DNA from: Escherichia coli | Lineage (GTDB): Bacteria; Pseudomonadota; Gammaproteobacteria; Enterobacterales; Enterobacteriaceae | DNA: 64,000 bases | Assembly: GCF_030013205.1 (NCBI RefSeq) | Contig: NZ_CP122648.1 | Strand: one strand, 5' to 3' | Part shown: positions 43,419-59,939 of the stretch, one piece after another | How the letters are laid out: every line of letters begins with the position of its first letter | Numbering within the stretch: position 1 is the stretch's first letter | Notes under the pieces: model-generated | What the model was told of the DNA's origin: nothing | What the model saw: the letters and a program-made list of their open reading frames with translations, nothing else | Databases searched by the model: none | Program-made: the position numbers and the translations under genes

Positions 43419-43829
43419 ATGAACGCAAAAGAAAAAGGCATTATAACTGCGCTAAAAAATATATCGGAGACCGCAAACAGAGCCATTCAGGATGCAACAA
43501 ATGCAGGAATGATTGGGCCTGCCACCACAGCCATGATGATAGCAAGAGTAACCGCCGAAGCAGCCGAAATTATCGAAAAACAGGATGCTGAACTAACGGT
43601 TCTCAGAACACAATCAGTCACCGAACTGGATTTGTCTAACACCGGACGCCTTATTTACACAATTGGCTCGGAGCCACAGCAATACACCATTATCGTCGGA
43701 TTACAGGATAAATACCTGATCACTCCTCACCCCATAAGGGAATCAGAAATTCTGACAAATCTCCGCCTGATAGAGCGCTCTCAAGTCGCATTCATTGATG
43801 ACGCACAGCGCACCGTATTTAACGCATAG
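43419..43829 (+). CDS. Hypothetical phage protein, 136 aa
   Basis: ORF in the early operon. Confidence 0.45.
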   Translation: MNAKEKGIITALKNISETANRAIQDATNAGMIGPATTAMMIARVTAEAAEIIEKQDAELTVLRTQSVTELDLSNTGRLIYTIGSEPQQYTIIVGLQDKYLITPHPIRESEILTNLRLIERSQVAFIDDAQRTVFNA

Positions 43830-43853
43830 GGTTACTGGACAAAGGGGGGCGCA

Positions 43854-44057
43854 ATGGCAATTAAGCGTTTTTCCGTCATTCGTTTCACATCCAGAGGGCG
43901 TGAATACGAGGTTGACGAACGGCTGATTAAAACGCTCGACCGTCACCGTTCGCAACCTGACGCGCATCACATTTACCTCACTGACGACACTTACTTCTGC
44001 GCCACCAACGTGGTGCAGGTGAATCTTATCAGACAGGTACAGGAGTCACGCAGATGA
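43854..44057 (+). CDS. Hypothetical phage protein, 67 aa
   Basis: 4-bp overlap with the next gene. Confidence 0.45.
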   Translation: MAIKRFSVIRFTSRGREYEVDERLIKTLDRHRSQPDAHHIYLTDDTYFCATNVVQVNLIRQVQESRR

Positions 44058-44299
44058 CCATTCTGGACTACATCACAGCCAATCCGGGTTGTAGCGGTGG
44101 AGAAATCGCCGCCGCGCTGAATACCCCAACCACAGCCATTAATGCTGAGTTGCGCCGACTCTGGCGTGACGGCTTAGTCATCAGAGAAGAGCGCAAAACA
44201 GGCGGTCGGTTCTCTTACCAGGTAAACCCGATGCCGTTCGGGTGTGGCAACCCACTTACTCACATGTTTAACCAGCTACTGAAGGAAGCCAGAGCATGA
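44054..44299 (+). CDS. Small winged-helix-like DNA-binding protein, 81 aa
   Basis: Segment GCSGGEIAAALNTPTTAINAELRRLWRDGLV resembles a wHTH recognition helix; ATGA-coupled on both sides. Confidence 0.45.
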   Translation: MTILDYITANPGCSGGEIAAALNTPTTAINAELRRLWRDGLVIREERKTGGRFSYQVNPMPFGCGNPLTHMFNQLLKEARA

Positions 44300-44595
44300 G
44301 CACCATCAACCACCAGGAACTACGCGAACTGGCGACTGACCTGCAACGAATGGCAACGCATCAAAAATTACTGGCGTTTCGCGCAATGCTCTCGCCATCT
44401 GCCGTGTTGGCACTACTGGATGAGCTGGAGCACGCCAGAACCACAGCGCCAGCCATTCGCCTGACGCTCCATCATGAAATCGCTGATTTCTGTGCACCAC
44501 TGGGTTCACCTGGCGAACCGGAAACACCGGAAGCAATGCAGCGAGAGCTGCTGCAACGCATCGACAAGGTTTTTGATTTTTTCCTTAACCAGTAA
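44296..44595 (+). CDS. Hypothetical phage protein, 99 aa
   Basis: Coupled ORF. Confidence 0.45.
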   Translation: MSTINHQELRELATDLQRMATHQKLLAFRAMLSPSAVLALLDELEHARTTAPAIRLTLHHEIADFCAPLGSPGEPETPEAMQRELLQRIDKVFDFFLNQ

Positions 44596-44606
44596 GGGAT
44601 CGCAGC

Positions 44607-44810
44607 ATGAACAAAAAGACCTGGTTTCGCGCATACATGTGGGCGCTGGTATGCGTCCTCGTTTCTCTCATTCTGTATGCAGGACTCCTCCCCCGAATGA
44701 TTTCATCAGACAGCTCCTTCCTGGTATTGCTGGGCATTTTCATTGCCATGCTGTACCCGGCAGGCGTTGTTCGCCTTTTCAGTAAGTACATCAAGGAAAT
44801 CAAACAATGA
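44607..44810 (+). CDS. Small two-helix membrane protein, 67 aa (possible NfeD-like partner)
   Basis: Two hydrophobic helices; stop overlaps the start of the SPFH gene (ATGA). Confidence 0.5.
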   Translation: MNKKTWFRAYMWALVCVLVSLILYAGLLPRMISSDSSFLVLLGIFIAMLYPAGVVRLFSKYIKEIKQ

Positions 44811-45637
44811 AGAAATTCAAACTCTTTCAGATTATCCCTCTTTTTGCCGCCATCCTGCTGGTTGGTTGCGATCGTGTTGAGCCAGGTAATGTGGGCATCA
44901 AAGTCAACAAACTGGGCGACGACAAAGGCGTCGGTGAAGTGGTTGGTGTTGGCCGCTACTGGACTGGCTGGAATACCGAGGTTTACATCTTCCCGACCTT
45001 CAAACAAATGAAGACCTACGATGAGCCGTTCAGCTTCCAGATGAGTGACGGCACAACCATCGGCTATCACATCGGTGTGGCCTACAAGGTTGATCCATCC
45101 AAAGTTACTACAGTGTTTCAGACCTACCGCAAAGGCGTGGATGACATTACCGACACTGACCTGCGCCAGAAGATCGCCGATGCACTCAACCGACTGGCCA
45201 GCAAAATGACCACCGACAAATTTATCGACGGCGGGAAATCTGAACTACTGGATGCAGCTCTTAAAGACATTCAGGAGGAAATGACACCCATCGGTATTCA
45301 GGTAATGAGCCTCTCATATGTGGGTAAGCCGGAGTACCCGTCAACCGTTATCGACAGCATTAATGCCAAAGTCACGGCAAACCAGAAAACCCTGCAACGC
45401 GAACAGGAAGTCAAGCAACGTGAAGCAGAAGCCAACATGTTGCGCGCAGAAGCTGCCGGACAGGCTGATGCCATTCGCACAAAAGCCCAGGCTGAAGCCG
45501 ACGCCATTCGTTTACGCGGTGAAGCTCTGCGCCAGAATCCCGGCGTTATGGAGCTGGAAGCAATCAACAAATGGAACGGCACGCTGCCGCAATACATGAC
45601 CAGCAATACCGCTGTTCCGTTTGTTCCGGTGAAGTAA
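44807..45637 (+). CDS. SPFH/band-7 (stomatin/prohibitin-like) lipoprotein, 276 aa
   Basis: Lipobox LLVGC; SPFH-like core followed by an Ala/Glu-rich coiled coil (REAEANMLRAEAAGQADAIRTKAQAEADAIRLRGEA). Confidence 0.65.
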   Translation: MKKFKLFQIIPLFAAILLVGCDRVEPGNVGIKVNKLGDDKGVGEVVGVGRYWTGWNTEVYIFPTFKQMKTYDEPFSFQMSDGTTIGYHIGVAYKVDPSKVTTVFQTYRKGVDDITDTDLRQKIADALNRLASKMTTDKFIDGGKSELLDAALKDIQEEMTPIGIQVMSLSYVGKPEYPSTVIDSINAKVTANQKTLQREQEVKQREAEANMLRAEAAGQADAIRTKAQAEADAIRLRGEALRQNPGVMELEAINKWNGTLPQYMTSNTAVPFVPVK

Positions 45638-46004
45638 TTAAACCCGGCCAGTGAAAATCACTGGCCGGAGCAGTATCAGGATTTTTTAGTATGCCGTTCT
45701 CACAAAAAAACCGCTTGCCATGCCGCAATCAGTCAGGTTACATTTCCGCTGCACCTCATAAAACGGGTGCCGGGATTTCCACCCCGCTGACAACCAAAGC
45801 GCACAACCGCGCCAGCGGTTTTTTTGTGCGTACCGTATCGCCACGTCTTTTTCGCACACGAATTATGGTGGGGCGTATGGGGCCGACTTCGGTCGGGCCG
45901 GGTTCTTTGGTTGCCGGTTGTGGAAACCCTGTACGTCTCACCACCCCGAGTTTTCCACCTCTGGATGGTGAGTTTTCAAAACTTACAACCAAAGAGGCCA
46001 CACC

Positions 46005-46235
46005 ATGGCAAACCGCAAACAACAGCGCACATACGCTGCGCGTCGTCACATCCAGACTGAAATCAACCGCAGACTTTTCCGCGCATTCCGCGTCGCGCAA
46101 ATCATGCACATCAATATGCTGCATGAACGCAGTCACGCACTATCGAACAGCTATTCCGCCTCTGTTTTCAGCTATCTGGCGGATGATCTGCGCGAGCTTC
46201 AGCAGCTCATCCAGCAGCAAAACAAACTCCATTAA
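46005..46235 (+). CDS. Hypothetical small basic protein, 76 aa
   Basis: ORF downstream of a structured non-coding stretch. Confidence 0.35.
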   Translation: MANRKQQRTYAARRHIQTEINRRLFRAFRVAQIMHINMLHERSHALSNSYSASVFSYLADDLRELQQLIQQQNKLH

Positions 46236-46307
46236 TTCCTGTTCCGGGCCTTTCCTGCACCTTGCGGCGGGAGGCCTTCGCACATCTGTAACAAGAGGAG
46301 TGCCGCA

Positions 46308-46673
46308 ATGATTCTCGCCAACGACTTTCTTGAATACCTGCTCAACACAGAGCGTGATCTTGCCGTTCGCGTGCGTGACCGTTATGACATGTACCTGAAA
46401 TCCCTGCCTGTACCGCAGCTCGCTGACGGAAAGATTGTTATTGATGGCCGCTACATGATTGACAGCCACGAGGGAAATTACAGGCTTTACCGCATTGAAG
46501 GCGGCACCCCGTCCGTTATTGGCATTTACCAGCGCCCATCCTCTGCGATCGTCGATGTGATTGCAGACAGCATCCGCATCACACATCACTATGCCGACAC
46601 AGAAGACACCGTGCTGGAAATTCAGCGGCTGGCTACAGTCTGCCGCGACACCCTGAATGGCATGACGAAGTAA
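46308..46673 (+). CDS. Hypothetical phage protein, 121 aa
   Basis: Tightly packed with downstream ORFs. Confidence 0.45.
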   Translation: MILANDFLEYLLNTERDLAVRVRDRYDMYLKSLPVPQLADGKIVIDGRYMIDSHEGNYRLYRIEGGTPSVIGIYQRPSSAIVDVIADSIRITHHYADTEDTVLEIQRLATVCRDTLNGMTK

Positions 46674-46679
46674 ATCACT

Positions 46680-46967
46680 ATGACAGCAGAGTACATCAGG
46701 GACTGGCAACAACCGCGCCACGCAGTGGGGCGTGAAGGAACGGGGATCCCTGCTCCTGAAGCGGTGGAAGGTGTCGCAACGTCACAGGCCGACATTATCG
46801 ACCGTTTTAATGCGCTGGAAACCCGCCATCAGCAGGACAGCCAGAAAATCACTTTACTGACCACAGAGCTGACAGCACTGAAGGAAAAACTGCGCACGCA
46901 GGACGGCGATCCGCAGAACCGGTTCACCGCAACGGGCGCAGCCTCCGATCAACTGGCTGACTTCTGA
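46680..46967 (+). CDS. Hypothetical phage protein, 95 aa
   Basis: Tightly packed ORF. Confidence 0.45.
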   Translation: MTAEYIRDWQQPRHAVGREGTGIPAPEAVEGVATSQADIIDRFNALETRHQQDSQKITLLTTELTALKEKLRTQDGDPQNRFTATGAASDQLADF

Positions 46968-46990
46968 TAAGACAAAGGAGCAAATTTTTT

Positions 46991-47254
46991 ATGAATCTGG
47001 TGATGTCAGATATTACCCGCAACAAGCTGGGTTGCTATATGGCGCAGCAGGCGTCGCTTAACAACATCCCGGTATCTGCACTGGTATCGCGATTTACCGT
47101 GGAACCCTCGGTGTCCGCCATTGCTGCCGCACTGCATGTGCACGGTGTGCAACGCGTGGAAATAATCGAACCCACACAGAATATGGCCATCAGCGACATA
47201 CAGGCGGCGCGCTGTGAGTCATTCACCATCAGCGAAGGTGGACGCAATGAGTAA
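46991..47254 (+). CDS. Short ORF (87 aa) overlapping the gpI start; possibly a 3' remnant of baseplate gene J
   Basis: 8-bp overlap with gpI as expected for a J/I junction; far shorter than P2 J (~300 aa). Confidence 0.35.
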   Translation: MNLVMSDITRNKLGCYMAQQASLNNIPVSALVSRFTVEPSVSAIAAALHVHGVQRVEIIEPTQNMAISDIQAARCESFTISEGGRNE

Positions 47255-47774
47255 TTCGCTGTTACCACCATCAGCCAGCAATTTCATGCGTTGTGCCGAA
47301 GCCGTCGGGACACGCATTACAGACATTCCGGTAGACCTCAACACGCTGTGGTCGCCGGATACCTGCCCGGTGCATCTGCTGCCTTATCTCGCCTGGGCAT
47401 TTTCCGTTGACCGCTGGGATCGCAACTGGCCGGAAGAGACAAAGCGACAGGTGATTCGTGATGCATGGCTGATACACCGACACAAGGGAACCATCAGCGC
47501 ACTGCGCCGGGCCATTGAGCCGCTGGGATATCTCATTCGTGTGTCTGAGTGGTGGGAGTTCGACGGCGAACCCGGAACATTCAAGGTTGATGTTGGCACG
47601 CTGGACAGTGGTGTGACCGAGGAAATGTATCTGGAAATGGAACGGCTGATTGCCGATGCCAAACCCGCAAGTCGCCACCTTATCGGCCTGAACATTATCC
47701 AGGACATTCCTGGCTATCTGTATACAGGCGGTGTGGTCTGTGATGGTGATGTTATTACTGTTTATCCCGGATAA
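47247..47774 (+). CDS. Baseplate/tail protein I (P2 gpI family), 175 aa
   Basis: MSNSLLPP...LWSPDTCPVHLLPYLAWAFSVDRWD...ERLIADAKPASRHLIGLNI matches recalled P2 gpI. Confidence 0.85.
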   Translation: MSNSLLPPSASNFMRCAEAVGTRITDIPVDLNTLWSPDTCPVHLLPYLAWAFSVDRWDRNWPEETKRQVIRDAWLIHRHKGTISALRRAIEPLGYLIRVSEWWEFDGEPGTFKVDVGTLDSGVTEEMYLEMERLIADAKPASRHLIGLNIIQDIPGYLYTGGVVCDGDVITVYPG

Positions 47775-47784
47775 GTGAGAAACA

Positions 47785-50442
47785 ATGAGCACGAAATTTA
47801 AAACCGTTATCACTACTGCCGGAGCCGCGAAGCTGGCAGCCGCCACTGTCCCCGGCGGGAAAAAAGTAACTCTGTCTGCAATGGCCGTGGGTGACGGTAA
47901 TGGCAAATTGCCGGTGCCGGATGCCGGTCAGACGAAACTGGTGCATGAGGTCTGGCGTCACGCTCTGAATAAAGTCAGCGTGGATAACAAGAATAAAAAC
48001 TATATCGTGGCTGAACTGGTTGTACCGCCAGAAGTGGGCGGCTTCTGGATGCGTGAGCTGGGTCTGTATGACGATGCCGGAACACTGATTGCGGTCGCTA
48101 ACATGGCGGAAAGCTATAAACCTGAACTCGCTGAAGGCTCCGGGCGCGCGCAGACCTGCCGCATGGTTATTATTGTCAGCAACGTGGCGTCCGTTGAGCT
48201 GAGTATTGATGCCAGCACAGTGATGGCGACGCAGGATTACGTCGATGACAAAATCGCAGAGCATGAGCAGTCCCGCCGCCATCCTGACGCCACGCTGACA
48301 GAAAAAGGTTTTACTCAGTTAAGTAGCGCAACAAACAGCACCAGTGAAGAGCTGGCGGCAACGCCAAAGGCAGTAAAAGCAGCCTATGACAATGCTGAAA
48401 AACGTATGCAGAAAGACCAGAACGGTGACGATATTCCAGATAAGGGCGCTTTTCTGGACAACGTTGGCGTTACCAGCCTGACGTTTATGAAAAACAATGG
48501 CGAAATGCCGCTTGATGCTGACTTGAATACATTTGGTCCCGTTAAGGCTTATCTTGGCATCTGGTCTAAAGCAACATCCACCAACGCAACACTGGAGAAA
48601 AATTTCCCGGAAGATAATGCTGTCGGTGTGCTTGAGGTTTTTGCAGCTGGCAATTTTGCAGGCACGCAACGTTTTATCACGAGAGACGGCAATGTATACA
48701 TGCGTAAACTCGCCAATAAGTGGAATGGCACTGATGGTCCGTGGGGCGTATGGCGTCACACTCAATCAGCTACCCGCCCTTTGAGTACGACTATAGACCT
48801 GAATACGCTTGGAGCCGCTGAGCATCTTGGTTTATGGCGTAACAGTAGCTCGGCTATAGCTTCATATGAACGCAATTATCCAGAGGAAGGCGGCTTTGCT
48901 CAGGGGACGCTTGAGATCCTCGAAGGCGGGAATTATGGAAGAACGCAACGTTATACCACTCGTCGTGGGAATATGTACGTTCGCTGCCTTGCGGCAAGCT
49001 GGGATGCATCAAATCCGCAGTGGGAACCGTGGTTAAGAGTCGGTCATCAGTCAGAGAGCCGTTATTACGAAGGTGATTTGAATGTTCTAACCGACCCCGG
49101 TATTTACAGTGTTACAGGAAAGGCGACAAACGGTCCGATGCTGGACGCTGCTGGGGCGACATTGCTTGGGATACTGGAAGTAATCAGGCGTTTTGATGGT
49201 GTATCTGTCTGGCAGCGTTACACAACCACAGGGAAATCAGAAACCACACAGGGGCGCACTTTTGAGCGCGTCTACGCCGGGAGCACATGGACCGAATGGC
49301 GAGAAGTGTATAACTCCTTTTCGTTGCCCCTGAATATGGGGATCGGTGGCGCAGTGGCAAAACTCACCAGCCTGGACTGGCAGACCTACGATTTTGTGCC
49401 GGGCAGTCTGATAACCGTTCGGCTTGATAACATGACCAATATTCCCGACGGTATGGACTGGGGCGTCATTGATGGCAACCTGATAAACATCGCTGTTGGT
49501 CCGAGTGATGATTCCGGTACGGGGCGCTCAATGCATGTATGGCGCAGCACTGTAAGTAAAGCGAATTACCGCTTTTTTATGGTTCGCATTTCAGGAAATC
49601 CGGGAAGCCGCACGATTACGACAAGACGTGTGCCAATTATCGACGAAGCTCAGACATGGGCGGCGAAACAGACATTCAGCGGTGGTCTTTCTGGCGAACT
49701 ATCCGGCAATGCTGCTACAGCAACAAAGCTGAAAACGGCAAGGACAATTAACGGCGTAAAATTTGACGGCTCGGCAAATATTGAAGCGTTTCCGCCAGGT
49801 GTTCCGCTGCCGTGGCCATCAGATACTGTGCCGTCTGGTTACGCCCTGATGCAGGGACAGACTTTTGATAAATCTGCATACCCGAAACTTGCAGTCGCTT
49901 ATCCGTCAGGCGTGATCCCGGATATGCGTGGCTGGACAATCAAGGGCAAACCCGCCAGTGGTCGGGCCGTATTGTCTCTGGAACAGGACGGCATTAAATC
50001 GCACACCCACAGTGCCAGCGCATCCAGTACGGATTTGGGTACGAAAACCACATCGTCGTTTGATTACGGTACTAAATCAACGAATAACACAGGTGCACAT
50101 ACCCACAATGTATCTGGTACTGCAAATAGTGCTGGCGCACATACTCATACCGTTCCATTAAGGAGACCAAACAGTGGCGGTATGAATTTCGACTGGCTGG
50201 ATGGTGCATCAAGTGGCACGGTGGTGGGGAATGGAACTGTGCCTTCTTCTGGCGCACATACCCACTCAGTATCAGGTACCGCTACAAGTGCTGGGGCACA
50301 TGCACACACTGTTGGTATTGGCGCTCATACGCACTCTGTTGCGATTGGTTCACATGGACACACCATCACCGTTAACGCTGCTGGTAACGCGGAAAACACC
50401 GTTAAAAACATCGCATTTAATTATATTGTGAGGCTTGCATAA
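47785..50442 (+). CDS. Tail fiber protein (P2 gpH-like), 885 aa
   Basis: Conserved N-terminal fiber domain ([20 protein letters not shown]...), internal repeats, C-terminal HxH repeats (GAHTHxVSGTAxSAGAH) ending [11 protein letters not shown]. Confidence 0.9.
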
Positions 50443-51059
50443 TGGCATTCAGAATGAGTGAACAATCACGTACTGTAAAAATTTATAACCTGCTGGCCGG
50501 AACTAATGAGTTTATTGGTGAAGGTGACGCATATATTCCACCTCATACAGGGCTGCCAGCCAATTCTACAGATATCGCCCCACCGGAAATTCCTGCTGGC
50601 TTTGTGGCAGTTTTTAACAGTGAAAATGAATCGTGGAATATTGTTGAAGACCATCGTGGTAAAACGGTCTATGACGTGGCATCGGGGGACGCGTTGTTTA
50701 TTTCTGAACCCGGACCGCTACCAGAGAATGTCACCTGGTTGTCGCCAGCAGGGGAGTATCAGAAGTGGGACGGCGTATCCTGGGTGAAGGATGAGGAAGC
50801 AGAAAAACTGTTTCGGATACGGGAAGCGGAAGAGAAAAAGGCAAGGTTGATCCAGGAAGCAACAGATAACATCGCAATTCTGCAGGATGCAGTTAATCTT
50901 GAAATAGCAACAAACGAGGAAAATTCACAACTGGATTCCTGGAGAAAATACAGAGTATTAGTGAGTAGAATTGACACCAGTACAGCTCCGGATATCGTAT
51001 GGCCAGAGCTGATGAATCAGGGTTATGTGCGGGAGGACGAGCAGATAACTTCAGACTGA
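50442..51059 (+). CDS. Tail fiber assembly chaperone (P2 gpG/Tfa-like), 205 aa
   Basis: TAATG-coupled to the fiber gene; Tfa-like sequence. Confidence 0.8.
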
Positions 51060-51586
51060 AATTTAGTGATGAATGTTGAATCATCTGGAATATCATGCAA
51101 TACCAATGCATGAGCACCTATTGTGACATTGTTTCCTATACGCACTTTGCCACCAAGAATGGTGGCATTACAACCAATGGTCACATTATGTCCTATAACA
51201 ATATCCATATCATTAAAATCACCACGCAGCCCAATAGTTACCCCTGGTTTTATTGAACAATTTTCACCGATTGTTACTTTGTGACCGATAACAACACTGT
51301 TGAGATAAGAAATATCAAAGCCTTTCCCTATATTTACAGTTAAAGGGACTGTTACATTATATTTATCAAGAATGAAACGTTCTATTTTCCCCGCAATCTT
51401 CCGACAGCATCCGCCTTTATCAAAAAGGTATTTGGCTATGCGCCACCAAAATAAATAACGAACTCTTCTATGTTTTATTGCGCGAACAATTGCCTTTCGC
51501 CAGGAGAAAGGACGCTCGCTACCGATTACTTCATAGTGAATACAATCTTTAAGTTCATTAATATTCATATCTCTATTATTCAGCAT
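51023..51586 (-). CDS. Hexapeptide-repeat O-acetyltransferase (WcaB/CysE-like), 187 aa
   Basis: Left-handed beta-helix repeats ([45 protein letters not shown]); AT-rich; 37-bp convergent overlap with the fiber assembly gene. Confidence 0.75.
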
Positions 51587-51756
51587 AAGATAATCATGTG
51601 ACCAATTATTGTAATAATTTTAATGGTATGTTTCTACTGGCTATCCAGCGTGTCTGATGTCCAGTAACAAATCGTTAACACTGGTGCAATCAAATGGTGA
51701 GTGTTAAGACTGGCCACTTATTACCAGGTATGAGGGTATGAGTGGCCAGCATTAAA

Positions 51757-52251
51757 TCAGAACAGCCCTTTAACTGAACTGGCCGCGCTGTTAAGGGATG
51801 ATGTCACTTTATCTTTGAAGCCGGACAGCATATCGCTGAACGATGAGGATTGCAGGCGCTCCCGCAAATCCTCATCACAGCGTTCAAGGGTCAGTGAAAA
51901 TTCTATCTTTTTCGCCTTACCGTAGCGATCAAACTCGGAACGGGTCGTATTCGTTTCGGTCAGGACATACATGCCGTAAATCTGCCCGACGCCATCAATA
52001 AGAGGCCAGGGGCGTCCTGTATACGCCTGCGTGGTCAGCAGCGACAGCGACACTTCGCCACCTGTAATTTCAGGATAAAGCACACCAGAAAGAACGATGC
52101 GATCATCACCTGCACCGATATACTGCCAGCTTGCTGAACGGTTAACGCGTTCATTTTTCACATGCCGCCAGCTTTTGTTTTGCTGTAACTGCTGATGCGG
52201 CAGCGTGCGCAGCTCAAAAACAAACATGCCGTAGATCATCATCATGGCCAT
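51757..52251 (-). CDS. Tail protein U (P2 gpU-like)
   Basis: MMMIYGMFVFELRTLPHQQLQQNKSWRH...VLSGVLYPEITGG...PLIDGVGQIYGMYV matches recalled P2 gpU. Confidence 0.88.
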   Translation of the reverse strand: MAMMMIYGMFVFELRTLPHQQLQQNKSWRHVKNERVNRSASWQYIGAGDDRIVLSGVLYPEITGGEVSLSLLTTQAYTGRPWPLIDGVGQIYGMYVLTETNTTRSEFDRYGKAKKIEFSLTLERCDEDLRERLQSSSFSDMLSGFKDKVTSSLNSAASSVKGLF

Positions 52252-52257
52252 GACTCC

Positions 52258-55074
52258 TCAATCTTTATCGTAAAAACTGCCACGCCCGGCACGGGCGCGC
52301 CGTTCCATTTCTGCCCTGACCATTTCACCGACCAGTTTCGCCAGTTCGCGGGGATTCTGCGTAACAACGTTATGCAGATGAACATGAATTTCACCACCAA
52401 ATCCGGAGGCAACAGGCTCCCGGTTACGGGAAGTTACAGGAACTGATGCCACTGGAGATCGTATGGCCTCCGCCACCGGGCGGGAGCTGGCCGCAACAAC
52501 AGGGACCAGCGCCGGAGGCAGCGGAGCCGGGACCACGGGTGTGATATTAATTGCGGGGGCAGGCTTACTGACCTGCGCAATCTTCCGCTCCTGCCACTCT
52601 CCACGAACAGCAAGTGCGCGGGGCAGGTTCTTAAAGACAATATCGCCGGGGCCAATGCGTTTTTTCGTCTCATCAACCAGCTTACCTGTGTTATCAGCAA
52701 TTTTGCTGAGTCTGCGTAGCGTCCCGGTATTGCTGTCTGTGAGCGGTTTGTTGTCTTTGGGTTTATTACCTCCGGTGCCATTGCCATTTTCCACAGGCTT
52801 CGGCGGATTGATTTTCGCCAGGTCACCCTGAAGCAAGGCAACCTTGTCCTGAAGAATGGCCGCACGCTGTGCGTCTTCGATTTTCTTGCGCGCCCTTTCC
52901 GCTTCATCCGGAAGGACGCCAAGTTTTTCAAGTATCCACGCCAGCGTATCCAGTAGCATTTTTGCAGGTGTCAGAACAAGCTGTAACGCACCGCCAAGAA
53001 CGTTACCGAATATCTCGCCAGCACTGGTACATTTATCCAGCGTTTCCTTGCTGGACTCCATCGGTGACAGCAGCGATTTAAACCAGTTAAACACCTGGCT
53101 GATCCCGCTTCCGATTGTGTCAAAAACAGGACCAAACCGTTCAAAGGTTTCGCGCAACGGGGTCAGCCTTTCCATAATCCCGCTGAACACCCCGGCAAAA
53201 AATGCCCTGATGGGATCCCAGTATTTCCAGATAAGAACGGCAGCTCCGGCAAGCGCAGCCACGATAAGACCAACCGGACTGAACAACGCCCCGATGGCGC
53301 CTCCCAGTAAAGAAACGGAACCCGTCACCATTCCCCACAGCGCAGGCAACACCCTGACGACATTCATTGACCGGGTAAGAATGTCAAAACCAAGACGCAG
53401 GGTGGCCAGCTTCCCGTAAAGCACCCCAATAACCAGCGACAACGAGCCAATCGTTGCAGTCATTGCCAGCAACGCACCGCCTGCTATCAGTAGCTGGCGC
53501 GTCAGTACCGGATGGGCCTGCGCCAGCGAGGTGATTTTTTCAAGCACCCGCGTGAGCCACTGCGTGACAGAACGCAGCGGACCGTCAACCAGATCACTGA
53601 TGCGAATACGAAGACCTTCCCATGCGCTGTCGAGATTTTTCAGGTCCCCATCAAGATTATCGGCCATTACTTTTGCGACGCGATCGGCCTCTCCCCTTGC
53701 CCCCTGCAATTCTCTGGTCAGTTTTTGCAGCTCTCCTGAACCAGCCGCCGCAACAAGCGTCTGCAAACCAACGAACGCCTCTTCTCCGGCGATGTCCTTG
53801 AAGAAGGAAACCTGGTCCACCTGTCCGTATTTTTGTGTCGCCTTATAGAGATCAAGCAGCACATCCTCCATCGGGCGCATTTTGCCTCTGGCGTCAGCAA
53901 CTGACACCCCCAGCTCTTTCAGTGCATCAGCCGCAGCTTTTGGCGGTGATGCAAGGCGGGACAGACTTGCGCGCATGGCCGTACCAGCATCGCTTCCGCG
54001 AAGACCATTATTGGCAAGCATCCCGGCCATGGCCGCCGCTTCTTCAAGACTGATACCAAGTTTTGCGGCAACCGGACCGGTATACTTCATGGTTTCGCCC
54101 AGCGCGCGTAAATCAGTATTGGTCCGGGTGAATGCTGCTGTCAGCGTATCGCCAACACGGTCCATTTGATCGGCTGTCAGGTTGAACTGTGTGAGGATAT
54201 TGGAGCCTATATCAGCCGTCTCGCCGAGTTCGACGCCACCTGCCAGCGCCATATTAAGAACACCGGGCAATGCGGCCTGAATGGCCTGCGGAGTAAAACC
54301 AGCCATTGCCAGAAAGCTCTGCCCACTGGCGGCATCACTCGCAGTAAACTGTGTTTCAGAGCCAAGTTTTAACGCCTGCTCACGCAGCGCCTTAAACTGC
54401 GGGCTGTTTTTGTCGATTCGCGTCAGTGCCTGAACGCGGGACATCTCTTTGCCGAACCCGATCGCAGGCTGCAAAAAACGCCCGGCAGCATAGCCGCCCG
54501 CCGTTGCCGCACCAATTGCCAGCGCACCACCTGTTTTCAGTTTTCCCGCTGTTTCCTGCGCGCGCGAATACCGCTCACGCGCCCGTGTTACACGCGCAAG
54601 CGCCTGCCGTTCGCGTTCAAGCTGGTTGTTGTACTGTTCGGTGCGTCTGATGGCCTGCTGGATGGTGTTATCGCTGCCTGTCAGGGAAATGCCGTGGCGT
54701 TTCAGCTCTCCGCCAAGCTCCCGCATTTTCTGAATTTCCCGTGTGCGCGATTCATTCAGGCGTTCAAGCCGGGTGCTTAACTGCTGCATCAGCTTTTGTT
54801 GTTTTTCGCTGAGCACTGTACCCGTGCGTTGTAACTGATTAAGGGCGTTAAGCTGGCGTCGTGCTTTCAATATGCCAGCATCCGCTTTACTGACAGCGTC
54901 ACGGGCGCGCTCAAATGAACGCGCCTGACGCTCGAGATTTTTGATCGCCCCCTGCGTTCGCTGGATGGAGTCACCAAACTGCCCCATCAGGCGGCGGGCG
55001 TTTTCGGCAGGCCGGGTCAGCCTGTCAACGGCGCTGAAAGCGACCCGGATGTCAAGAGTCTTCATTGTCTGCAT
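52258..55074 (-). CDS. Tail tape measure protein (P2 gpT-like)
   Basis: Long coiled-coil/TM-rich protein between E' and U; start uncertain (ORF extends to 55101). Confidence 0.85.
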   Translation of the reverse strand: MQTMKTLDIRVAFSAVDRLTRPAENARRLMGQFGDSIQRTQGAIKNLERQARSFERARDAVSKADAGILKARRQLNALNQLQRTGTVLSEKQQKLMQQLSTRLERLNESRTREIQKMRELGGELKRHGISLTGSDNTIQQAIRRTEQYNNQLERERQALARVTRARERYSRAQETAGKLKTGGALAIGAATAGGYAAGRFLQPAIGFGKEMSRVQALTRIDKNSPQFKALREQALKLGSETQFTASDAASGQSFLAMAGFTPQAIQAALPGVLNMALAGGVELGETADIGSNILTQFNLTADQMDRVGDTLTAAFTRTNTDLRALGETMKYTGPVAAKLGISLEEAAAMAGMLANNGLRGSDAGTAMRASLSRLASPPKAAADALKELGVSVADARGKMRPMEDVLLDLYKATQKYGQVDQVSFFKDIAGEEAFVGLQTLVAAAGSGELQKLTRELQGARGEADRVAKVMADNLDGDLKNLDSAWEGLRIRISDLVDGPLRSVTQWLTRVLEKITSLAQAHPVLTRQLLIAGGALLAMTATIGSLSLVIGVLYGKLATLRLGFDILTRSMNVVRVLPALWGMVTGSVSLLGGAIGALFSPVGLIVAALAGAAVLIWKYWDPIRAFFAGVFSGIMERLTPLRETFERFGPVFDTIGSGISQVFNWFKSLLSPMESSKETLDKCTSAGEIFGNVLGGALQLVLTPAKMLLDTLAWILEKLGVLPDEAERARKKIEDAQRAAILQDKVALLQGDLAKINPPKPVENGNGTGGNKPKDNKPLTDSNTGTLRRLSKIADNTGKLVDETKKRIGPGDIVFKNLPRALAVRGEWQERKIAQVSKPAPAINITPVVPAPLPPALVPVVAASSRPVAEAIRSPVASVPVTSRNREPVASGFGGEIHVHLHNVVTQNPRELAKLVGEMVRAEMERRARAGRGSFYDKD

Positions 55075-55288
55075 TCCCGCTGCGAAGTGCCGCCCGCTCA
55101 CGCCAGCTAACCACTTCGCCGGGCGTCATCATGAAGATTTCGGCGGGCGACCAGTTAAAAATGGCGGCGATATCTGCCACCAGATCTTCGATGTGCTCAA
55201 AGCACACCAGGGTGATTACGCTGCCGTCTCCTGCACGCTCTTCGCGCCAGAGTCTGGCTCGCTCATAAAATTTACAGCCACAGCGCAC
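55052..55288 (-). CDS. E' frameshift extension of tail assembly chaperone (P2 E+E'-like)
   Basis: Overlapping -1 frame ORF continuing past the E stop; joined via a slippery heptamer. Confidence 0.6.
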   Translation of the reverse strand: MRCGCKFYERARLWREERAGDGSVITLVCFEHIEDLVADIAAIFNWSPAEIFMMTPGEVVSWRERAALRSGNADNEDS

Positions 55289-55590
55289 AACTGAATAAAA
55301 TCGCGTGACGACATTTTTTTAATCATCACTTCATCCAGTCGTGGCGAGGTCACGCGAGGCAACAGCGTGAACATGGTATCCGCTTTCAGATTCAGCACAT
55401 CAGACAGCGACAGACCACGCAGGGATCCAGCCTGTTCAATAGCCCCGGTGATCTCCACATACGTGATTTTTTCGCCACCACGCTCAATTGGTCGGGTCAG
55501 TTTTACGCCACGTTCGACAGCCATATCCTCACCTGCCGTCACATCATCCGCCACGGTGTTATTCCGGGTTTCAGTATCGATGTCTTTCAT
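55216..55590 (-). CDS. Tail assembly chaperone E (P2 gpE-like)
   Basis: Small acidic ORF between the tail tube and tape measure genes; start uncertain. Confidence 0.75.
   Translation of the reverse strand: MKDIDTETRNNTVADDVTAGEDMAVERGVKLTRPIERGGEKITYVEITGAIEQAGSLRGLSLSDVLNLKADTMFTLLPRVTSPRLDEVMIKKMSSRDFIQLCAVAVNFMSEPDSGAKSVQETAA
55267..55273 (-). promoter_or_regulatory. Candidate -1 programmed frameshift slippery site A_AAT_TTT (E to E')
   Basis: Heptamer of the form X_XXY_YYZ in the E frame, located where the E' frame opens. Confidence 0.45.
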
Positions 55591-55645
55591 CAGTTGTCTC
55601 CTTTTCAGTCAGAGGCGACGCACTGCGCCGCCTGCATATTACTTA

Positions 55646-56158
55646 TCAGCCAAGCCCGAGCGCGGAACGGATGCGATCGGGCACAATGTCCTTGCCGTCC
55701 TTCCGGTAAATGAAGTTCAGCAGGTCAATCTCCCACAACGGGCGATCGTTAACACTCAGCTTGTAGTAGGTGTTTTTAATGGCGTAAGTGTGTGATGTGG
55801 CTTCGCCCTGTTTGGCTTCCCCCATATCAATTTCCGTCACACGTCCGCGCATTTCGACTTCATACAGGTCGCTTTCTGCATCGGTGTAGTATTCACCCGC
55901 AAAACGCAGCAGCGTGCCGTCAATCGTGCCGCCATACTTAAGGAACAGCTCACGAACTGCGCCCCCCATGACAAAGCTCGCATCAAGCGCGGAGTCGTCC
56001 AGACCGAGATCAATACTTACCGCACCCATCATGCCACCACCCCGGTAGCTGTCGGTTTTGCGCGTCAGCTTAGGCAGAGTGACGGACGTCACCTTACCCA
56101 CTTCGTTTTCACCATCCACAAACAGCGTAAAAAAGCGAAGATGTTTTGGTACAGCCAT
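55646..56158 (-). CDS. Tail tube protein (P2 gpFII-like), 170 aa
   Basis: ...VTLPKLTRK...YRGGGM...DLGLDD... matches recalled P2 FII; TGATG-coupled to the sheath gene. Confidence 0.9.
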   Translation of the reverse strand: MAVPKHLRFFTLFVDGENEVGKVTSVTLPKLTRKTDSYRGGGMMGAVSIDLGLDDSALDASFVMGGAVRELFLKYGGTIDGTLLRFAGEYYTDAESDLYEVEMRGRVTEIDMGEAKQGEATSHTYAIKNTYYKLSVNDRPLWEIDLLNFIYRKDGKDIVPDRIRSALGLG

Positions 56159-57345
56159 CAGGCACCTCCCAGCACCGCAAATGCGGGACCAAAGAATTCA
56201 TCAGTAAACGACTGATAAAGCTCCATGTCTTCCAACGGGGGAACAGGCGTATATTTGTAGCGAATACGCACGCGCCCCTGACGTAAATCCGTGGTGCTGT
56301 TATCCACCACGTCATACCAGCACTCCGCGCCAATCAGTTTCCCGGCAGTCACCAGTGAATCCAGTTTTGCCCTGATGGCACTGATAACATCCTTCACGTT
56401 CGCAGGCGTCAGTGGACTGTCGATGGTTTCAAACTGCGCTTCCGCAATTGAATCAGCCAGCACCTGTGCGGTTCGGGTATACACCTCAAAGATGTAGGCG
56501 TTCGTTTCCGGTGTGCGGTTGCCCCAGAAGCGGAACCCGTTGCGACGAATAATGGTCGTGATTTCTTTGTTGTTGAGGCTGTTGGCATCGCTGTCTTCGG
56601 CCTGCAACGACCAGAACACATGCCTCGACATCCCCAGCACATTTTTAACAGGAACGTTGGACAGTGATTTGTGCCAGCCCTGCTCATGGTCAATGTACGC
56701 ACGAAGGCCGCACGCATAGGCAGGCGCGGGGAACGTTTCGTTTTTGCCACTTTTCGGGTTGTAGGCGATGAAGTCCGGCCATAAGAGCATCACCTCACGT
56801 TCGTTGAATTTCTGGCGGTAGGTAATCGCATCAGCCATCGTGTCACAGCCATGACATGAGGCATACACAAACGCGCGCAGTTTACCCGCAATCACGCACA
56901 GGGATTTTGTCACCGCCTCCGTGTCCAGCTCCGGCGCGGCCAGAATACGCGGACGGTATCCGATGCTTTCATCCTGCTCTGCAACAAGCAGCGCATACAT
57001 CCCCGTATAGCTGCCGTCAGATTCAGAACCACCGATAACCAGTTGATCCTGCGTCTTTCCGTCTTCTTCTTTGTGTTCAGCCACGCGAACGACGATCACC
57101 TTTGTGCTCACCTGGTCTGCGATAGCCTTAAGCGCACGATAAAGCGTCCCCGTTGTCCCGCATTTTCCCAGCACGTCATTGACGCGGGTCAGCAGTGTGG
57201 GCTTGTTCAGCGGGAACAGCTTCGCGTCCGCATCATCCGCCGTTGCCACGATACCGATAACACTGGAATCAACATCATTAATCGCTGTTACCAGGTCGGT
57301 ATTTTCCGTAACACGGGCACCATGAAAACGAGTTTCACTCATAGC
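56158..57345 (-). CDS. Contractile tail sheath protein (P2 gpFI-like), 395 aa
   Basis: Start taken at MSETRFHGARV; size and sequence typical of a myovirus sheath. Confidence 0.9.
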   Translation of the reverse strand, partial: AMSETRFHGARVTENTDLVTAINDVDSSVIGIVATADDADAKLFPLNKPTLLTRVNDVLGKCGTTGTLYRALKAIADQVSTKVIVVRVAEHKEEDGKTQDQLVIGGSESDGSYTGMYALLVAEQDESIGYRPRILAAPELDTEAVTKSLCVIAGKLRAFVYASCHGCDTMADAITYRQKFNEREVMLLWPDFIAYNPKSGKNETFPAPAYACGLRAYIDHEQGWHKSLSNVPVKNVLGMSRHVFWSLQAEDSDANSLNNKEITTIIRRNGFRFWGNRTPETNAYIFEVYTRTAQVLADSIAEAQFETIDSPLTPANVKDVISAIRAKLDSLVTAGKLIGAECWYDVVDNSTTDLRQGRVRIRYKYTPVPPLEDMELYQSFTDEFFGPAFAVLGGA

Positions 57346-57499
57346 TTCAGCCCCTTGTATCCGTAAAATGATTCGGCAACAATCATCACCCACCACGCGC
57401 GTAATCTCACCCCTGCGCCGTTCTCCCGACCCGGCGACAACAAAAAGCAGTAACCCCCTCCGCACGCACATGCGACCATGCCGCACAGGGAGGGAACAG

Positions 57500-58609
57500 A
57501 TGACCGATACCACCATGCAATTGCTCAGTCAGGGCACAGACCCCGTGAAAATGCCGGATTTTGATATTCTCGCGGAGGGTAAAACGCTGTCAGGCGTGGC
57601 AGAGCGCCTGATGAGCCTGTCACTGACCGACAACCGGGGATTTGAGGCGGACCAGCTCACCATCACGCTGGATGATGCGGATGGTCAGTTGCAGCTACCG
57701 CCACGGGGCGCGCGCCTGACGGTTCTCATTGGCTGGAAAGGAGAACCGCTGACAGAAAAAGGCACTTACATTGTTGATGAAATCGCTCACGAAGGACCGC
57801 CGGACAGGCTGACTGTTTCAGCCAGAAGCGCAGATTTTCGGGATGAATTTAACGTTAAACGTGAGGTGTCCTGGCATGATGTGACCGTTGAGCGTGTGGT
57901 ATCCGCCATCGCTCATCGGTACGGCCTGAAACCGCAAATCAGCGAAATGCTGATGGATATCGAAATCGACCACGCCGACCAGACCGAAGAAAGCGACATG
58001 TCCTTTCTTACGCGCATGGCGGAAATGCTGGGCGCAATCACCACGGTAAAAAGCGGTAATCTGTTATTCATTATGCCAGGCGGTGGCGTGAACGCACAGG
58101 GCCAGCCGTTGCCCTCGTTCGCCATTACACGCAGCAGCGGCGATCGCCATCAGTTCCGTATTGCTGACCGCGAGGCGTATACGGGGGTACGCGCCTACTG
58201 GCTTGATCTTAATTACGGGAAAAAGAAAAAAGTCAGCGTGAAACGCCGTAAACCGCCAAAACCCAAAAAGGAGAAAAGCAGCAGCCGTGAAGGTGATTAT
58301 ATGGAAGGCGCGGAAGGCAATGTGTTTGTGTTACGCAAGACTTATCAGAACGAGCAGGCAGCAAGACGCGCAGCGGCGGCAAAGTGGCAGCAGCTACAAC
58401 GCGGAGCCGCATCATTCTCCATCACGCTGGCGCGTGGACGTGCAGAACTCTACCCTGAAATGCATGGCACGGTGACAGGCTTTAAAAGTGACATCGACAA
58501 TCAGGACTGGATTATTGCAAAAGCCGAGCACACCATTGATAACAGCGGCTTTACCACGCAGCTTGAGCTTGAAGCAAAAATCCCAGAATGGATAGCAGAA
58601 ACAGAGTAA
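57500..58609 (+). CDS. Tail protein D (P2 gpD-like), 369 aa
   Basis: Start at MTDTTMQLL with RBS AGGGAGGG; gpD-like sequence; ORF track extends upstream to 57368. Confidence 0.85.
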   Translation: MTDTTMQLLSQGTDPVKMPDFDILAEGKTLSGVAERLMSLSLTDNRGFEADQLTITLDDADGQLQLPPRGARLTVLIGWKGEPLTEKGTYIVDEIAHEGPPDRLTVSARSADFRDEFNVKREVSWHDVTVERVVSAIAHRYGLKPQISEMLMDIEIDHADQTEESDMSFLTRMAEMLGAITTVKSGNLLFIMPGGGVNAQGQPLPSFAITRSSGDRHQFRIADREAYTGVRAYWLDLNYGKKKKVSVKRRKPPKPKKEKSSSREGDYMEGAEGNVFVLRKTYQNEQAARRAAAAKWQQLQRGAASFSITLARGRAELYPEMHGTVTGFKSDIDNQDWIIAKAEHTIDNSGFTTQLELEAKIPEWIAETE

Positions 58610-58785
58610 ACAACTTAGATGCATTAGCCCTGACATTTGCTAACGCGCCTACAGCAAGAATCATAATCAATCTGACAGCCTACCCGGTGTCAAAATCAGA
58701 AGTACCTTACATTAGAATATGTTAATTTGTAGCAAACAAATTTACACACAAATAATTACTGCTGAAATAGCGCCCCATAAATGCC

Positions 58786-59469
58786 ATGTCAGAGGACCAT
58801 GTTATGAATATGCAAATTTTTATTGGACCAACAGCCACAGTTGCCGCGGTCTGCCTTGCTGCATATTTTGCTTTACGAAATGAGCGTAAAAAGAAAGCGC
58901 TTGAGATTAGAACAACTCAACTAGATCGAATATCTGAGCTAGTAAGCAGAGCATCTACCAATTTGATGCAATATACAGGTACTCTTGCCTCTATACTGGA
59001 AGCGCACACCAAAGAAAATTATCTACCAGACCACAAATTTAACATTAATGAAATTAGCAAATGGAAAAATGATCTCGATAAGAGAGAAGATTGGGCTATT
59101 GATATACAGCAACTAAGAACATGCCAGCACAACCTGGAGTTTCATCGTGAAAAAGAATGGGCTGAATGGGAAAAAATAATTCCACCATTACTTGATAAAA
59201 TTAACCAATTTTTTCTCATATCCAAGCCGGGGCAACCTGTTACGCTTATAAATGGTCAAAATAAAACAGTCGATGAACTGATTGCTTTCTCAATATACTT
59301 ACAACAACAAACAGAAGAAATTAAAGCGGTACGTAAGCTGCTACTTTCTCAAATGAGAGAAGAATTCATCGAGTTAACTAGCTTTGAACCTGTCACAATA
59401 TTTAGCTTATTAAAATCAATAAAGAAAAGTGTCCTGCAATTTTTCTGTATCAGTGCTCTTAAAAATTGA
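58786..59469 (+). CDS. Membrane-anchored hypothetical protein, 227 aa, AT-rich cargo between D and ogr
   Basis: N-terminal TM helix (IFIGPTATVAAVCLAAYFAL) then ~190-aa charged helical domain; low GC; followed by a hairpin terminator at ~59483-59512. Confidence 0.6.
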   Translation: MSEDHVMNMQIFIGPTATVAAVCLAAYFALRNERKKKALEIRTTQLDRISELVSRASTNLMQYTGTLASILEAHTKENYLPDHKFNINEISKWKNDLDKREDWAIDIQQLRTCQHNLEFHREKEWAEWEKIIPPLLDKINQFFLISKPGQPVTLINGQNKTVDELIAFSIYLQQQTEEIKAVRKLLLSQMREEFIELTSFEPVTIFSLLKSIKKSVLQFFCISALKN

Positions 59470-59618
59470 CGCTCTGTTACAAGCAACCCCAGTGTTAAAC
59501 TGGGGTTATTCTTGCTAAGAGACCTTTATACGGCATAAGTAAACAAAGAGAACTATCAGTTGGAGTCTGGGCAAGTTCAGCCTAAACTAGCGACAGTACC
59601 ACGTTAAGGGAGGTCGCT

Positions 59619-59879
59619 ATGTTCCGTTGTCCGCTTTGTGGCGCATCTGCCCGTATCCGCACCAGTCGTCCGGAAAATGATTCAAACACCGTGCGGCAAA
59701 AGTATTACCAGTGCAACAACCTGGAATGCGGCGTATGCTTCTCAACACTGGAAGCTTTCCATAAATTCACATCGAAACACGCCTCCGGCATCCACTCTTC
59801 AGAAGGTATCCCGTGGCATGAGCTGCCAGCTTCACACAGGGGAAACAATCAGATGAGCTTGCCTTTACCTCAGAATTAA
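59619..59879 (+). CDS. ogr: Ogr/Delta-like zinc-finger late gene activator, 86 aa
   Basis: MFRCPLCGASARIRTSR...QKYYQCNNLECG: CxxC...CxxC arrangement as in P2 Ogr. Confidence 0.8.
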   Translation: MFRCPLCGASARIRTSRPENDSNTVRQKYYQCNNLECGVCFSTLEAFHKFTSKHASGIHSSEGIPWHELPASHRGNNQMSLPLPQN

Positions 59880-59939
59880 CAGGCAGAATTGCCGGAGTAA
59901 CAAAAAAGCGATAGATTACGCGCGGGTGCCTTTCGGCTG

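Follow-up and report, generated by a model that had tools for sequence, protein, structure and literature searches.

The window, a 64,000-nucleotide stretch of Escherichia coli chromosomal DNA, carries a tail fiber gene of the gpH type whose 885-aa open reading frame is present exactly as the initial annotation had placed it. The gene lies between a gene for a gpI-type baseplate protein and a gene for a tail fiber assembly chaperone (Tfa):

47214..47774, plus strand: gpI-type baseplate protein gene, directly upstream of the fiber gene (Pfam Tail_P2_I, E = 8e-52; annotation of an identical locus)
47785..50442, plus strand: tail fiber gene (gpH type), 885 aa, stop codon included (ORF list; phrog_295, phrog_4618, and phrog_381, all tail fiber)
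50442..51059, plus strand: Tfa gene (Pfam Caudo_TAP, E = 1.6e-39)

The gap between the gpI homologue, whose start is annotated at 47247 in the identical locus of E. coli strain ETEC4079, and the fiber ORF is 10 nt, and the fiber stop codon and the Tfa start codon overlap by 1 nt (TAATG). A position between baseplate gene I and a fiber assembly gene is that of a P2 gpH-type gene, and the order gpI, fiber, Tfa is also found in the apparently complete prophage of strain 631 (NZ_CP040263). Separate PHROGs tail fiber families match separate parts of the 885-aa protein, which already points to mosaicism.

The first part of the protein consists of an attachment domain followed by a shaft repeat:

47785..48237, plus strand: N-terminal baseplate-attachment domain, aa 1-151 (Pfam PF12571, Phage_tail_fib, N-terminal tail-collar fiber domain, E = 1e-57)
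48286..48477, plus strand: shaft repeat, aa 168-231 (Pfam Phage_fiber_2, match at aa 170-210, E = 8.5e-22)

The Pfam match agrees with the initial annotation, which had described a conserved N-terminal domain. By BLASTP, aa 1-204 are 86% identical to residues 1-204 of P2 gpH (NP_046775, 669 aa), which occupies the same gene position after gpI and before the assembly gene, and no similarity to canonical P2 H was detected beyond aa 204. Whereas P2 gpH lacks both the knob array and the gp37-type tip described below, the present fiber lacks the P2 H-type C-terminal receptor-binding region and the P2 G chaperone. The conserved N-terminal part is all that the fiber shares with canonical P2 H, with a breakpoint at aa ~204, and the proposal that the fiber is mosaic relative to P2 H was borne out. 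This boundary was taken from BLASTP; when the DNA was aligned globally with that of canonical P2 H, identity fell to 0% throughout, and this alignment was disregarded. The shaft repeat is common to the tail fiber S of phage Mu (PDB 8JU3, E = 3e-16; 5YVQ, E = 2e-14) and to lambdoid Stf proteins, with 74% identity to residues 506-567 of PhiR68_2 Stf.

The middle of the fiber (aa ~237-618) contains four tandem domains, K1 to K4, whose limits were defined by the match boundaries of 286 relatives retrieved with aa 225-655 from a search of 1.84 billion representative proteins:

48493..48762, plus strand: knob-like domain K1, aa ~237-326 (Smith-Waterman and hhalign versus K2)
48778..49044, plus strand: knob-like domain K2, aa ~332-420 (Smith-Waterman, hhalign, relatives, pLDDT)
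49054..49329, plus strand: knob-like domain K3, aa ~424-515 (hhalign versus K1 and K2; pLDDT 86-91)
49333..49638, plus strand: knob-like domain K4, aa ~517-618 (resemblance to K1-K3 in fold alone)

The initial annotation had quoted two related internal segments, which lie within K1 and K2, respectively. Their relationship is real: the Smith-Waterman score between aa 232-332 and aa 333-428 is 180, compared with 26 ± 4.7 for shuffled sequences (z = 32), and profile comparison of K1 with K2 by hhalign gave a probability of 99.9% (E = 9e-31). The count of "at least two" segments was correct as a minimum, but the array is larger, with a third domain recognized by profile and a fourth by fold. K3 is linked to K1 with a probability of 93.4% and to K2 with 95.2% (E = 2e-7 to 2e-8). 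The K3-K4 comparison was weak (E = 0.002, probability 14%), and comparison of the K1 and K2 sub-alignment profiles with that of K4 gave no similarity; on these hhalign results, K4 was dropped as a sequence homologue of K1-K3 and was accepted as knob-like on fold alone. A self-BLASTP of the fiber returned the identity match only, the off-diagonal matches probably having been culled, and segment-wise Smith-Waterman and profile comparison were used instead. No DNA tandem repeat with the ~280-nt knob period was found by TRF, suggesting that the knob duplication is old.

The domains behave as separable units among the relatives. K1 (pLDDT about 90 in the model of the present fiber described below) occurs there as an independent module, many of them lack K2, leaving K3 directly after K1, and the number and order of modules vary: some fibers run from K1 straight into K3-K4, and others have three K1-like or three K4-like copies. 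In a sliding window, the K3 allele is locally divergent, with DNA identity of 66-83% to the fibers of phage vB_EcoM-613R2 (613R2) and P2SIDE7 and 88-98% to that of Yersinia phage vB_YpM_22 (YpM22). The array also occurs at 55% identity in a T-even "large distal tail fiber subunit" of Shigella phage JK23, which indicates that the knob array is itself portable.

Scans of single middle segments with Pfam and NCBIfam at permissive E-values gave no model matching aa 232-651, and as the curated models are silent on this region, evidence from fold was needed. An AlphaFold2 monomer model of aa 225-655, built from a 28-sequence alignment, has a mean pLDDT of 81.5 and a pTM of 0.40. It shows a string of four beta-rich, well-folded beads, and pLDDT drops only in the three interdomain linkers and the C-terminal linker. 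When the whole model was compared with the PDB by Foldseek, the top matches were the R1 and R2 pyocin fibers (E = 1e-6 and 5e-6), and staphylococcal phage receptor-binding proteins came next. TM-scores were low (0.19-0.23), as expected for a monomeric beads-on-a-string model. The structural neighbors that Buth et al. listed for the pyocin knobs are the same set (PMC6116203). The predicted structure thus has the antiparallel beta-sheet fold of a knob, as in R-pyocin Knob1/2 and phi11 gp45. Many close relatives (80-97% identical) are named "pyocin knob domain-containing protein" by NCBI, a label that presumably derives from a CDD model outside the Pfam and NCBIfam libraries used here. The assignment of K1-K3 as knobs, resting on these names and on the low-TM match of the whole model, is best read as a prediction. 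Compared with the R1/R2 pyocin fibers (6CL5, 6CL6, and 6CU2) and the staphylococcal receptor-binding proteins (phi11 gp45, 5EFV; phi812; 80alpha), which are the best fold matches and likewise carry tandem beta knobs along a trimeric fiber, the present protein has four knobs rather than two and shares only 9-17% sequence identity. These comparators, moreover, end in a lectin-like foot and have one HxH site, whereas the present fiber has a gp37 needle with seven HxH motifs.

The knob array is connected to the tip through a linker:

49645..49782, plus strand: linker with conserved motif at aa 646-666 (DNA identity collapse; motif shared with YpM22)

The motif, ATKLKTAR(T/K)IN(G/N)V(K/S)FDG..(N/D)I, is present in two types of fibers. 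The H fibers of a group of Peduovirus phages (YpM22, P24E6b, Escherichia phages D8/12W, and "P2SIDE7") are 92-95% identical to the present fiber over aa 1-~650, a span that includes the four knobs and the linker motif; YpM22, P24E6b, and D8 are isolated, plaque-forming phages. DNA identity to the H genes of YpM22 and P2SIDE7 collapses at nt ~1950 of the fiber gene, and the YpM22 sequence parts from ours immediately after the shared motif. Past this point, the fibers of the YpM22 group differ from the present one in having a P2-H-type C-terminus of ~260 aa (...KYINGTWYNVAQV) and a P2-G-type chaperone. Other fibers carry as many as 11 copies of the motif. From these alignments, the linker motif is the predicted site at which recombination joined the knob array to the gp37-type tip. 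That one knob array is found with two unrelated C-termini suggests that the C-terminus is the exchanged specificity unit.

Downstream of the linker, aa 653-885 match the crystal structure of the T4 gp37 tip (2XGF) with a phmmer E-value of 4e-84, and in a pairwise alignment they correspond end to end to gp37 residues 785-1026 with ~60% identity over 250 columns. The homology spans a whole tip (~215-240 aa, with collar and conserved C-terminus), and overall tip identity is 60% to T4, 66% to the lambda-like HK629 Stf, and 75% to PhiR68_2 Stf. The tip was divided into four sub-regions with operational boundaries read off the alignment:

49783..49989, plus strand: Collar domain of gp37-type tip, aa ~667-735 (Pfam Collar PF07484 at aa 672-719; aligned to 2XGF)
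49990..50148, plus strand: descending needle arm, aa ~736-788 (HxH at 740, 772, and 786)
50149..50250, plus strand: hypervariable head segment, 34 aa, aa ~789-822 (identity drop; predicted receptor-contact tip)
50251..50439, plus strand: ascending needle arm, aa ~823-885 (HxH at 825, 839, 848, and 857; conserved 11-aa end)

Amino acid identity differs sharply between these sub-regions:

Collar (aa 667-735): T4 80%, HK629 Stf 87%, PhiR68_2 Stf 88%, 613R2 Stf 91%
Descending arm (aa 736-788): T4 72%, HK629 83%, PhiR68_2 85%, 613R2 100%
Head segment (aa 789-822): T4 9%, HK629 32%, PhiR68_2 26%, 613R2 97%
Ascending arm (aa 823-885): T4 76%, HK629 89%, PhiR68_2 94%, 613R2 98%

The seven HxH motifs (aa 740, 772, 786, 825, 839, 848, and 857) all fall within aa 740-859, where the initial annotation had noted a C-terminus dense in such motifs. 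Shuffling the protein gave a mean of 0.52 motifs, and none of 20000 shuffles reached 7. In the T4 needle, seven iron atoms are each coordinated by HxH motifs (PMC6116203; Islam et al. 2019), and all seven motifs of the present fiber align with the seven iron-site motifs of T4 gp37. The suggested resemblance to T-even fibers was thus exceeded: the region is a ~60%-identical homologue of the T4 gp37 tip in which all seven HxH motifs keep their register. The C-terminus contains six matches to the 14-aa Pfam repeat Phage_fiber, and in the DNA the His boxes show up as repeats spaced 42 nt apart and as a 63-nt pair (78% identity) that links the ascending arm to the descending arm. Homology to 2XGF suggests that the tip forms a homotrimeric needle and coordinates iron.

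In T4 gp37, the counterpart of the head segment is residues 932-963, a span that takes in I933-Y953, the residues that have been found experimentally to contact LPS and OmpC (Islam et al. 2019); residue numbering was cross-checked with G921, H929, I933 to Y953, and G964 of that study. The initial annotation had regarded the distal part as the likely receptor-binding, host-range-determining region, and the hypervariability of the head exactly where the T4 receptor-contact residues map fits that view. A receptor of the OmpC or LPS-core type would be the obvious guess, and the head is unlike any characterized one. With the T4 gp37 tip and the family of lambda Stf/ORF314, PhiNP ORF6, and SEN5, the present tip shares the collar, the seven HxH motifs, and the conserved 11-aa C-terminus; divergence is confined to the head, and the assembly gene lies directly downstream in both. 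However, the head is unrelated to that of T4 (9%), and the tip is mounted on a P2-type fiber rather than on a T-even distal half-fiber. The chaperone differs as well, being of the lambda Tfa type (about 80% identity) rather than of the T4 gp38 type (28% identity, E = 2e-18).

This cognate chaperone of the gp38/Tfa family is encoded directly downstream of the tip. The Tfa is 99% identical to that of 613R2, and its resemblance to P2 G is limited to aa 126-190 (last ~65 aa). Tip and Tfa together are 97-99% identical to those of 613R2, and to judge from these alignments, the two travel jointly as a cassette in which Tfa co-varies with the tip. The pattern fits the "T4- and lambda-based RBP family", in which the last ~215 aa of the fibers are shared by >200 phages, divergence is centered on the T4 specificity region, and the cognate assembly gene lies directly downstream (Magaziner & Salmond 2022; PMC9659904). 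The similarity to 613R2 Stf (ON470591) extends over aa ~177-885 (nt 531-2658) and Tfa at 91-99% identity (91.5% for the fiber overall), covering the same knob array, tip, and chaperone, whereas the attachment domain is divergent (DNA identity of 35-55% across the initial ~520 nt), implying that the 613R2 fiber docks on a different baseplate lineage. The initial annotation had implied that no single known fiber would match over the full length. This held among phage records, but identical full-length proteins do occur in E. coli prophages.

Taken together, we consider it highly probable that the gene encodes the homotrimeric side tail fiber of a P2-like myovirus, recombined from three portable modules. 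In the mechanism that we propose, aa 1-204 would dock the fiber on a P2-type baseplate next to gpI and gpJ, and aa ~237-618 would form an extended rod of four tandem knob-like beta-domains, of which K1 and K2 may stem from a recent duplication and K3 may be older, with K4 recognizable only by fold. By analogy with R-pyocins and the staphylococcal phage receptor-binding proteins, the knobs would lengthen the fiber and may bind surface glycans. The T4 gp37-type tip at aa 653-885 would consist of a collar followed by a six-stranded needle, the trimer core of which is predicted to be stapled by seven octahedral, axial His6-metal (iron) sites, with one HxH motif per chain per site. The small distal head, aa ~789-822, would contact the host receptor and set the host range, and the co-transferred, translationally coupled Tfa chaperone would fold the tip.

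Part of this model depends on where specificity resides, and the knob array could instead be the main determinant by binding sugars of the LPS or O-antigen, as has been proposed for Knob2 of R-type pyocins, leaving the tip a conserved mechanical or secondary role. Buth et al. found Knob2 to be the most diverse part of R-pyocin fibers and pointed out that knob-like domains in the K1F endosialidase bind sugar (PMC6116203), and in our comparison relatives differ by shuffling, duplication, and deletion of knob modules, with K3 showing allele-like divergence (66-83% DNA identity) between fibers that are otherwise 95-100% identical. However, the sharpest divergence in the protein is in the 34-aa head (9-32% identity to T4, HK629, and PhiR68_2), which aligns with the OmpC/LPS-binding residues of T4, and one knob array pairs with either a P2-H-type or a gp37-type C-terminus; a primary role of the knobs in specificity is therefore unlikely in our judgment. 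A dual-specificity adhesin is a comparably tentative proposal, in which the knobs would scan O-antigen or LPS-core glycan reversibly, the head would bind a porin or the inner core, and the tip-Tfa cassette, preserved intact in decayed prophages, would serve as a standing reservoir from which co-resident P2-like phages switch host range by recombining at the linker. The HxH-rich C-terminus might also be read as a low-complexity or chance His-rich tract devoid of structural metal sites. Only its repetitive look, rich in Gly, Ser, Thr, Ala, and His, speaks for this, and with seven motifs where shuffles predict fewer than one, all aligned with the iron-coordinating motifs of 2XGF, such a reading is exceedingly improbable and, by homology, effectively refuted.

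Every module of the fiber belongs to a described family. Specific to the present fiber are the combination of a P2-type N-terminus, four knobs, and a gp37-type tip; a head-segment variant unlike characterized ones of that tip; and a clean natural junction motif. It is well established that P2, lambda, and T-even phages exchange fiber tips horizontally, and classic sequence work on P2 H/G in the early 1990s reportedly dealt with the horizontal exchange of fiber tips. The fiber opens no new biological question and illustrates the exchange of host-range modules, with one linker through which shared knobs are joined to a tip of the P2 type or of the T4/lambda type, each with its own chaperone. Its practical value lies in fiber engineering, such as the retargeting of P2 or of pyocins, for which it supplies a naturally occurring and presumably functional junction, along with a new head variant of the gp37-type tip.

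The status of this particular copy is a separate matter. The fiber gene is 100% identical to copies in E. coli strains ETEC4079 and ETEC1701, the protein is 100% identical to WP_000104716.1 of E. coli genomes (RefSeq name, tail fiber), and of 5426 complete E. coli genomes, 159 contain at least 80% of the gene. The ETEC4079 element is a P2-like prophage, located between dmsA and serS, in which most of the genes for head, lysis, and baseplate are gone: in the identical locus, the genes for replication, scaffold, and capsid are fragments, and the stretch from the terminase small subunit through gpJ is missing upstream of gpI. In the window, too, the head genes and V, W, and J are absent from the prophage; the copy thus cannot belong to a self-encoded virion and probably persists as a relic, or as a reservoir for recombination, and not as a component of a functional virion. 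The stronger reading takes the gene for a non-functional remnant within a decayed prophage, with a frame that is still intact through recent decay and not through selection, and draws on the fragmentation and the terminase-to-gpJ loss in the ETEC4079 locus as compared with the complete prophage of strain 631. Against it, the fiber ORF, Tfa, and their 1-nt overlap are all intact, and the identical protein WP_000104716.1 sits in the apparently complete P2-like prophage of strain 631. On balance, we lean toward the relic reading, which is likely true of the copy in the present genome; it concerns the status of that one copy and is compatible with the fiber having been assembled from portable modules.

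Two further ideas, both on the inverted FI-U tail block on the minus strand of the prophage, were set aside. That the block is bounded by inverted repeats was rejected, as no convincing flanking inverted repeats were found, and that it truncates gpD was dropped, as gpD aligns to P2 D residues 15-384. An acetyltransferase gene adjoins the fiber and Tfa genes, an arrangement shared with 613R2.

The P2-like prophage that carries the mosaic tail fibre gene (H) is decayed in the window, as is seen when its gene content is set beside the E. coli loci compared, those of ETEC4079 and strain 631. The prophage and its features are as follows.

~43800-47250 and 47214-59900, decayed P2-like prophage
44607-44810, small hydrophobic ORF preceding the SPFH/band-7 gene
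44807-45637 (+), SPFH/band-7 domain protein with a lipoprotein-like N terminus, among the prophage early genes
47214-51059 (+), I-H-Tfa
51023-51586 (-), hexapeptide-repeat acetyltransferase (phrog_2154, annotated serine acetyltransferase/transferase)
51757-57342 (-), tail block FI-FII-E-E'-T-U
57500-59879 (+), D-ogr

Upstream of gpI, everything from terminase/portal through gpJ is absent, and the replication, gpO, and gpN genes persist only as fragments. The integrase, repressor/cox, I-H-Tfa, the tail sheath-to-U block, D, and ogr are retained. The gpD gene is full length, its product sharing 49% identity with residues 15-384 of P2 D, although the PGAP annotation covers only 801 bp of it. In strain 631, the same fibre is housed in a prophage that looks complete.

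While P2 has its tail block, I-H, and D-ogr all in one direction, FI-FII-E-E'-T-U is reversed in the window and lies on the strand opposite to both I-H-Tfa and D-ogr. No convincing inverted repeats were found flanking the reversed block. Because the complete-looking prophage of strain 631 has the identical arrangement, the reversal is a feature of the lineage rather than an assembly error.

Where P2 has fun(Z), the window prophage instead carries the acetyltransferase gene, which is low in GC (35-39%) and convergent with the fibre assembly chaperone gene Tfa, overlapping its 3' end by 37 nt. In Escherichia phage vB_EcoM-613R2, the same gene adjoins Tfa. It is possibly a lysogenic-conversion moron, a candidate, for example, for acetylation of surface polysaccharide.

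The four-knob array of the fibre is also present, at 55% identity, in the large distal tail fibre subunit of the T-even Shigella phage JK23 (P0108), and the number and order of knob modules vary widely among relatives, including three K1-like or three K4-like copies. The knob is thus a unit shuffled freely between phage families.
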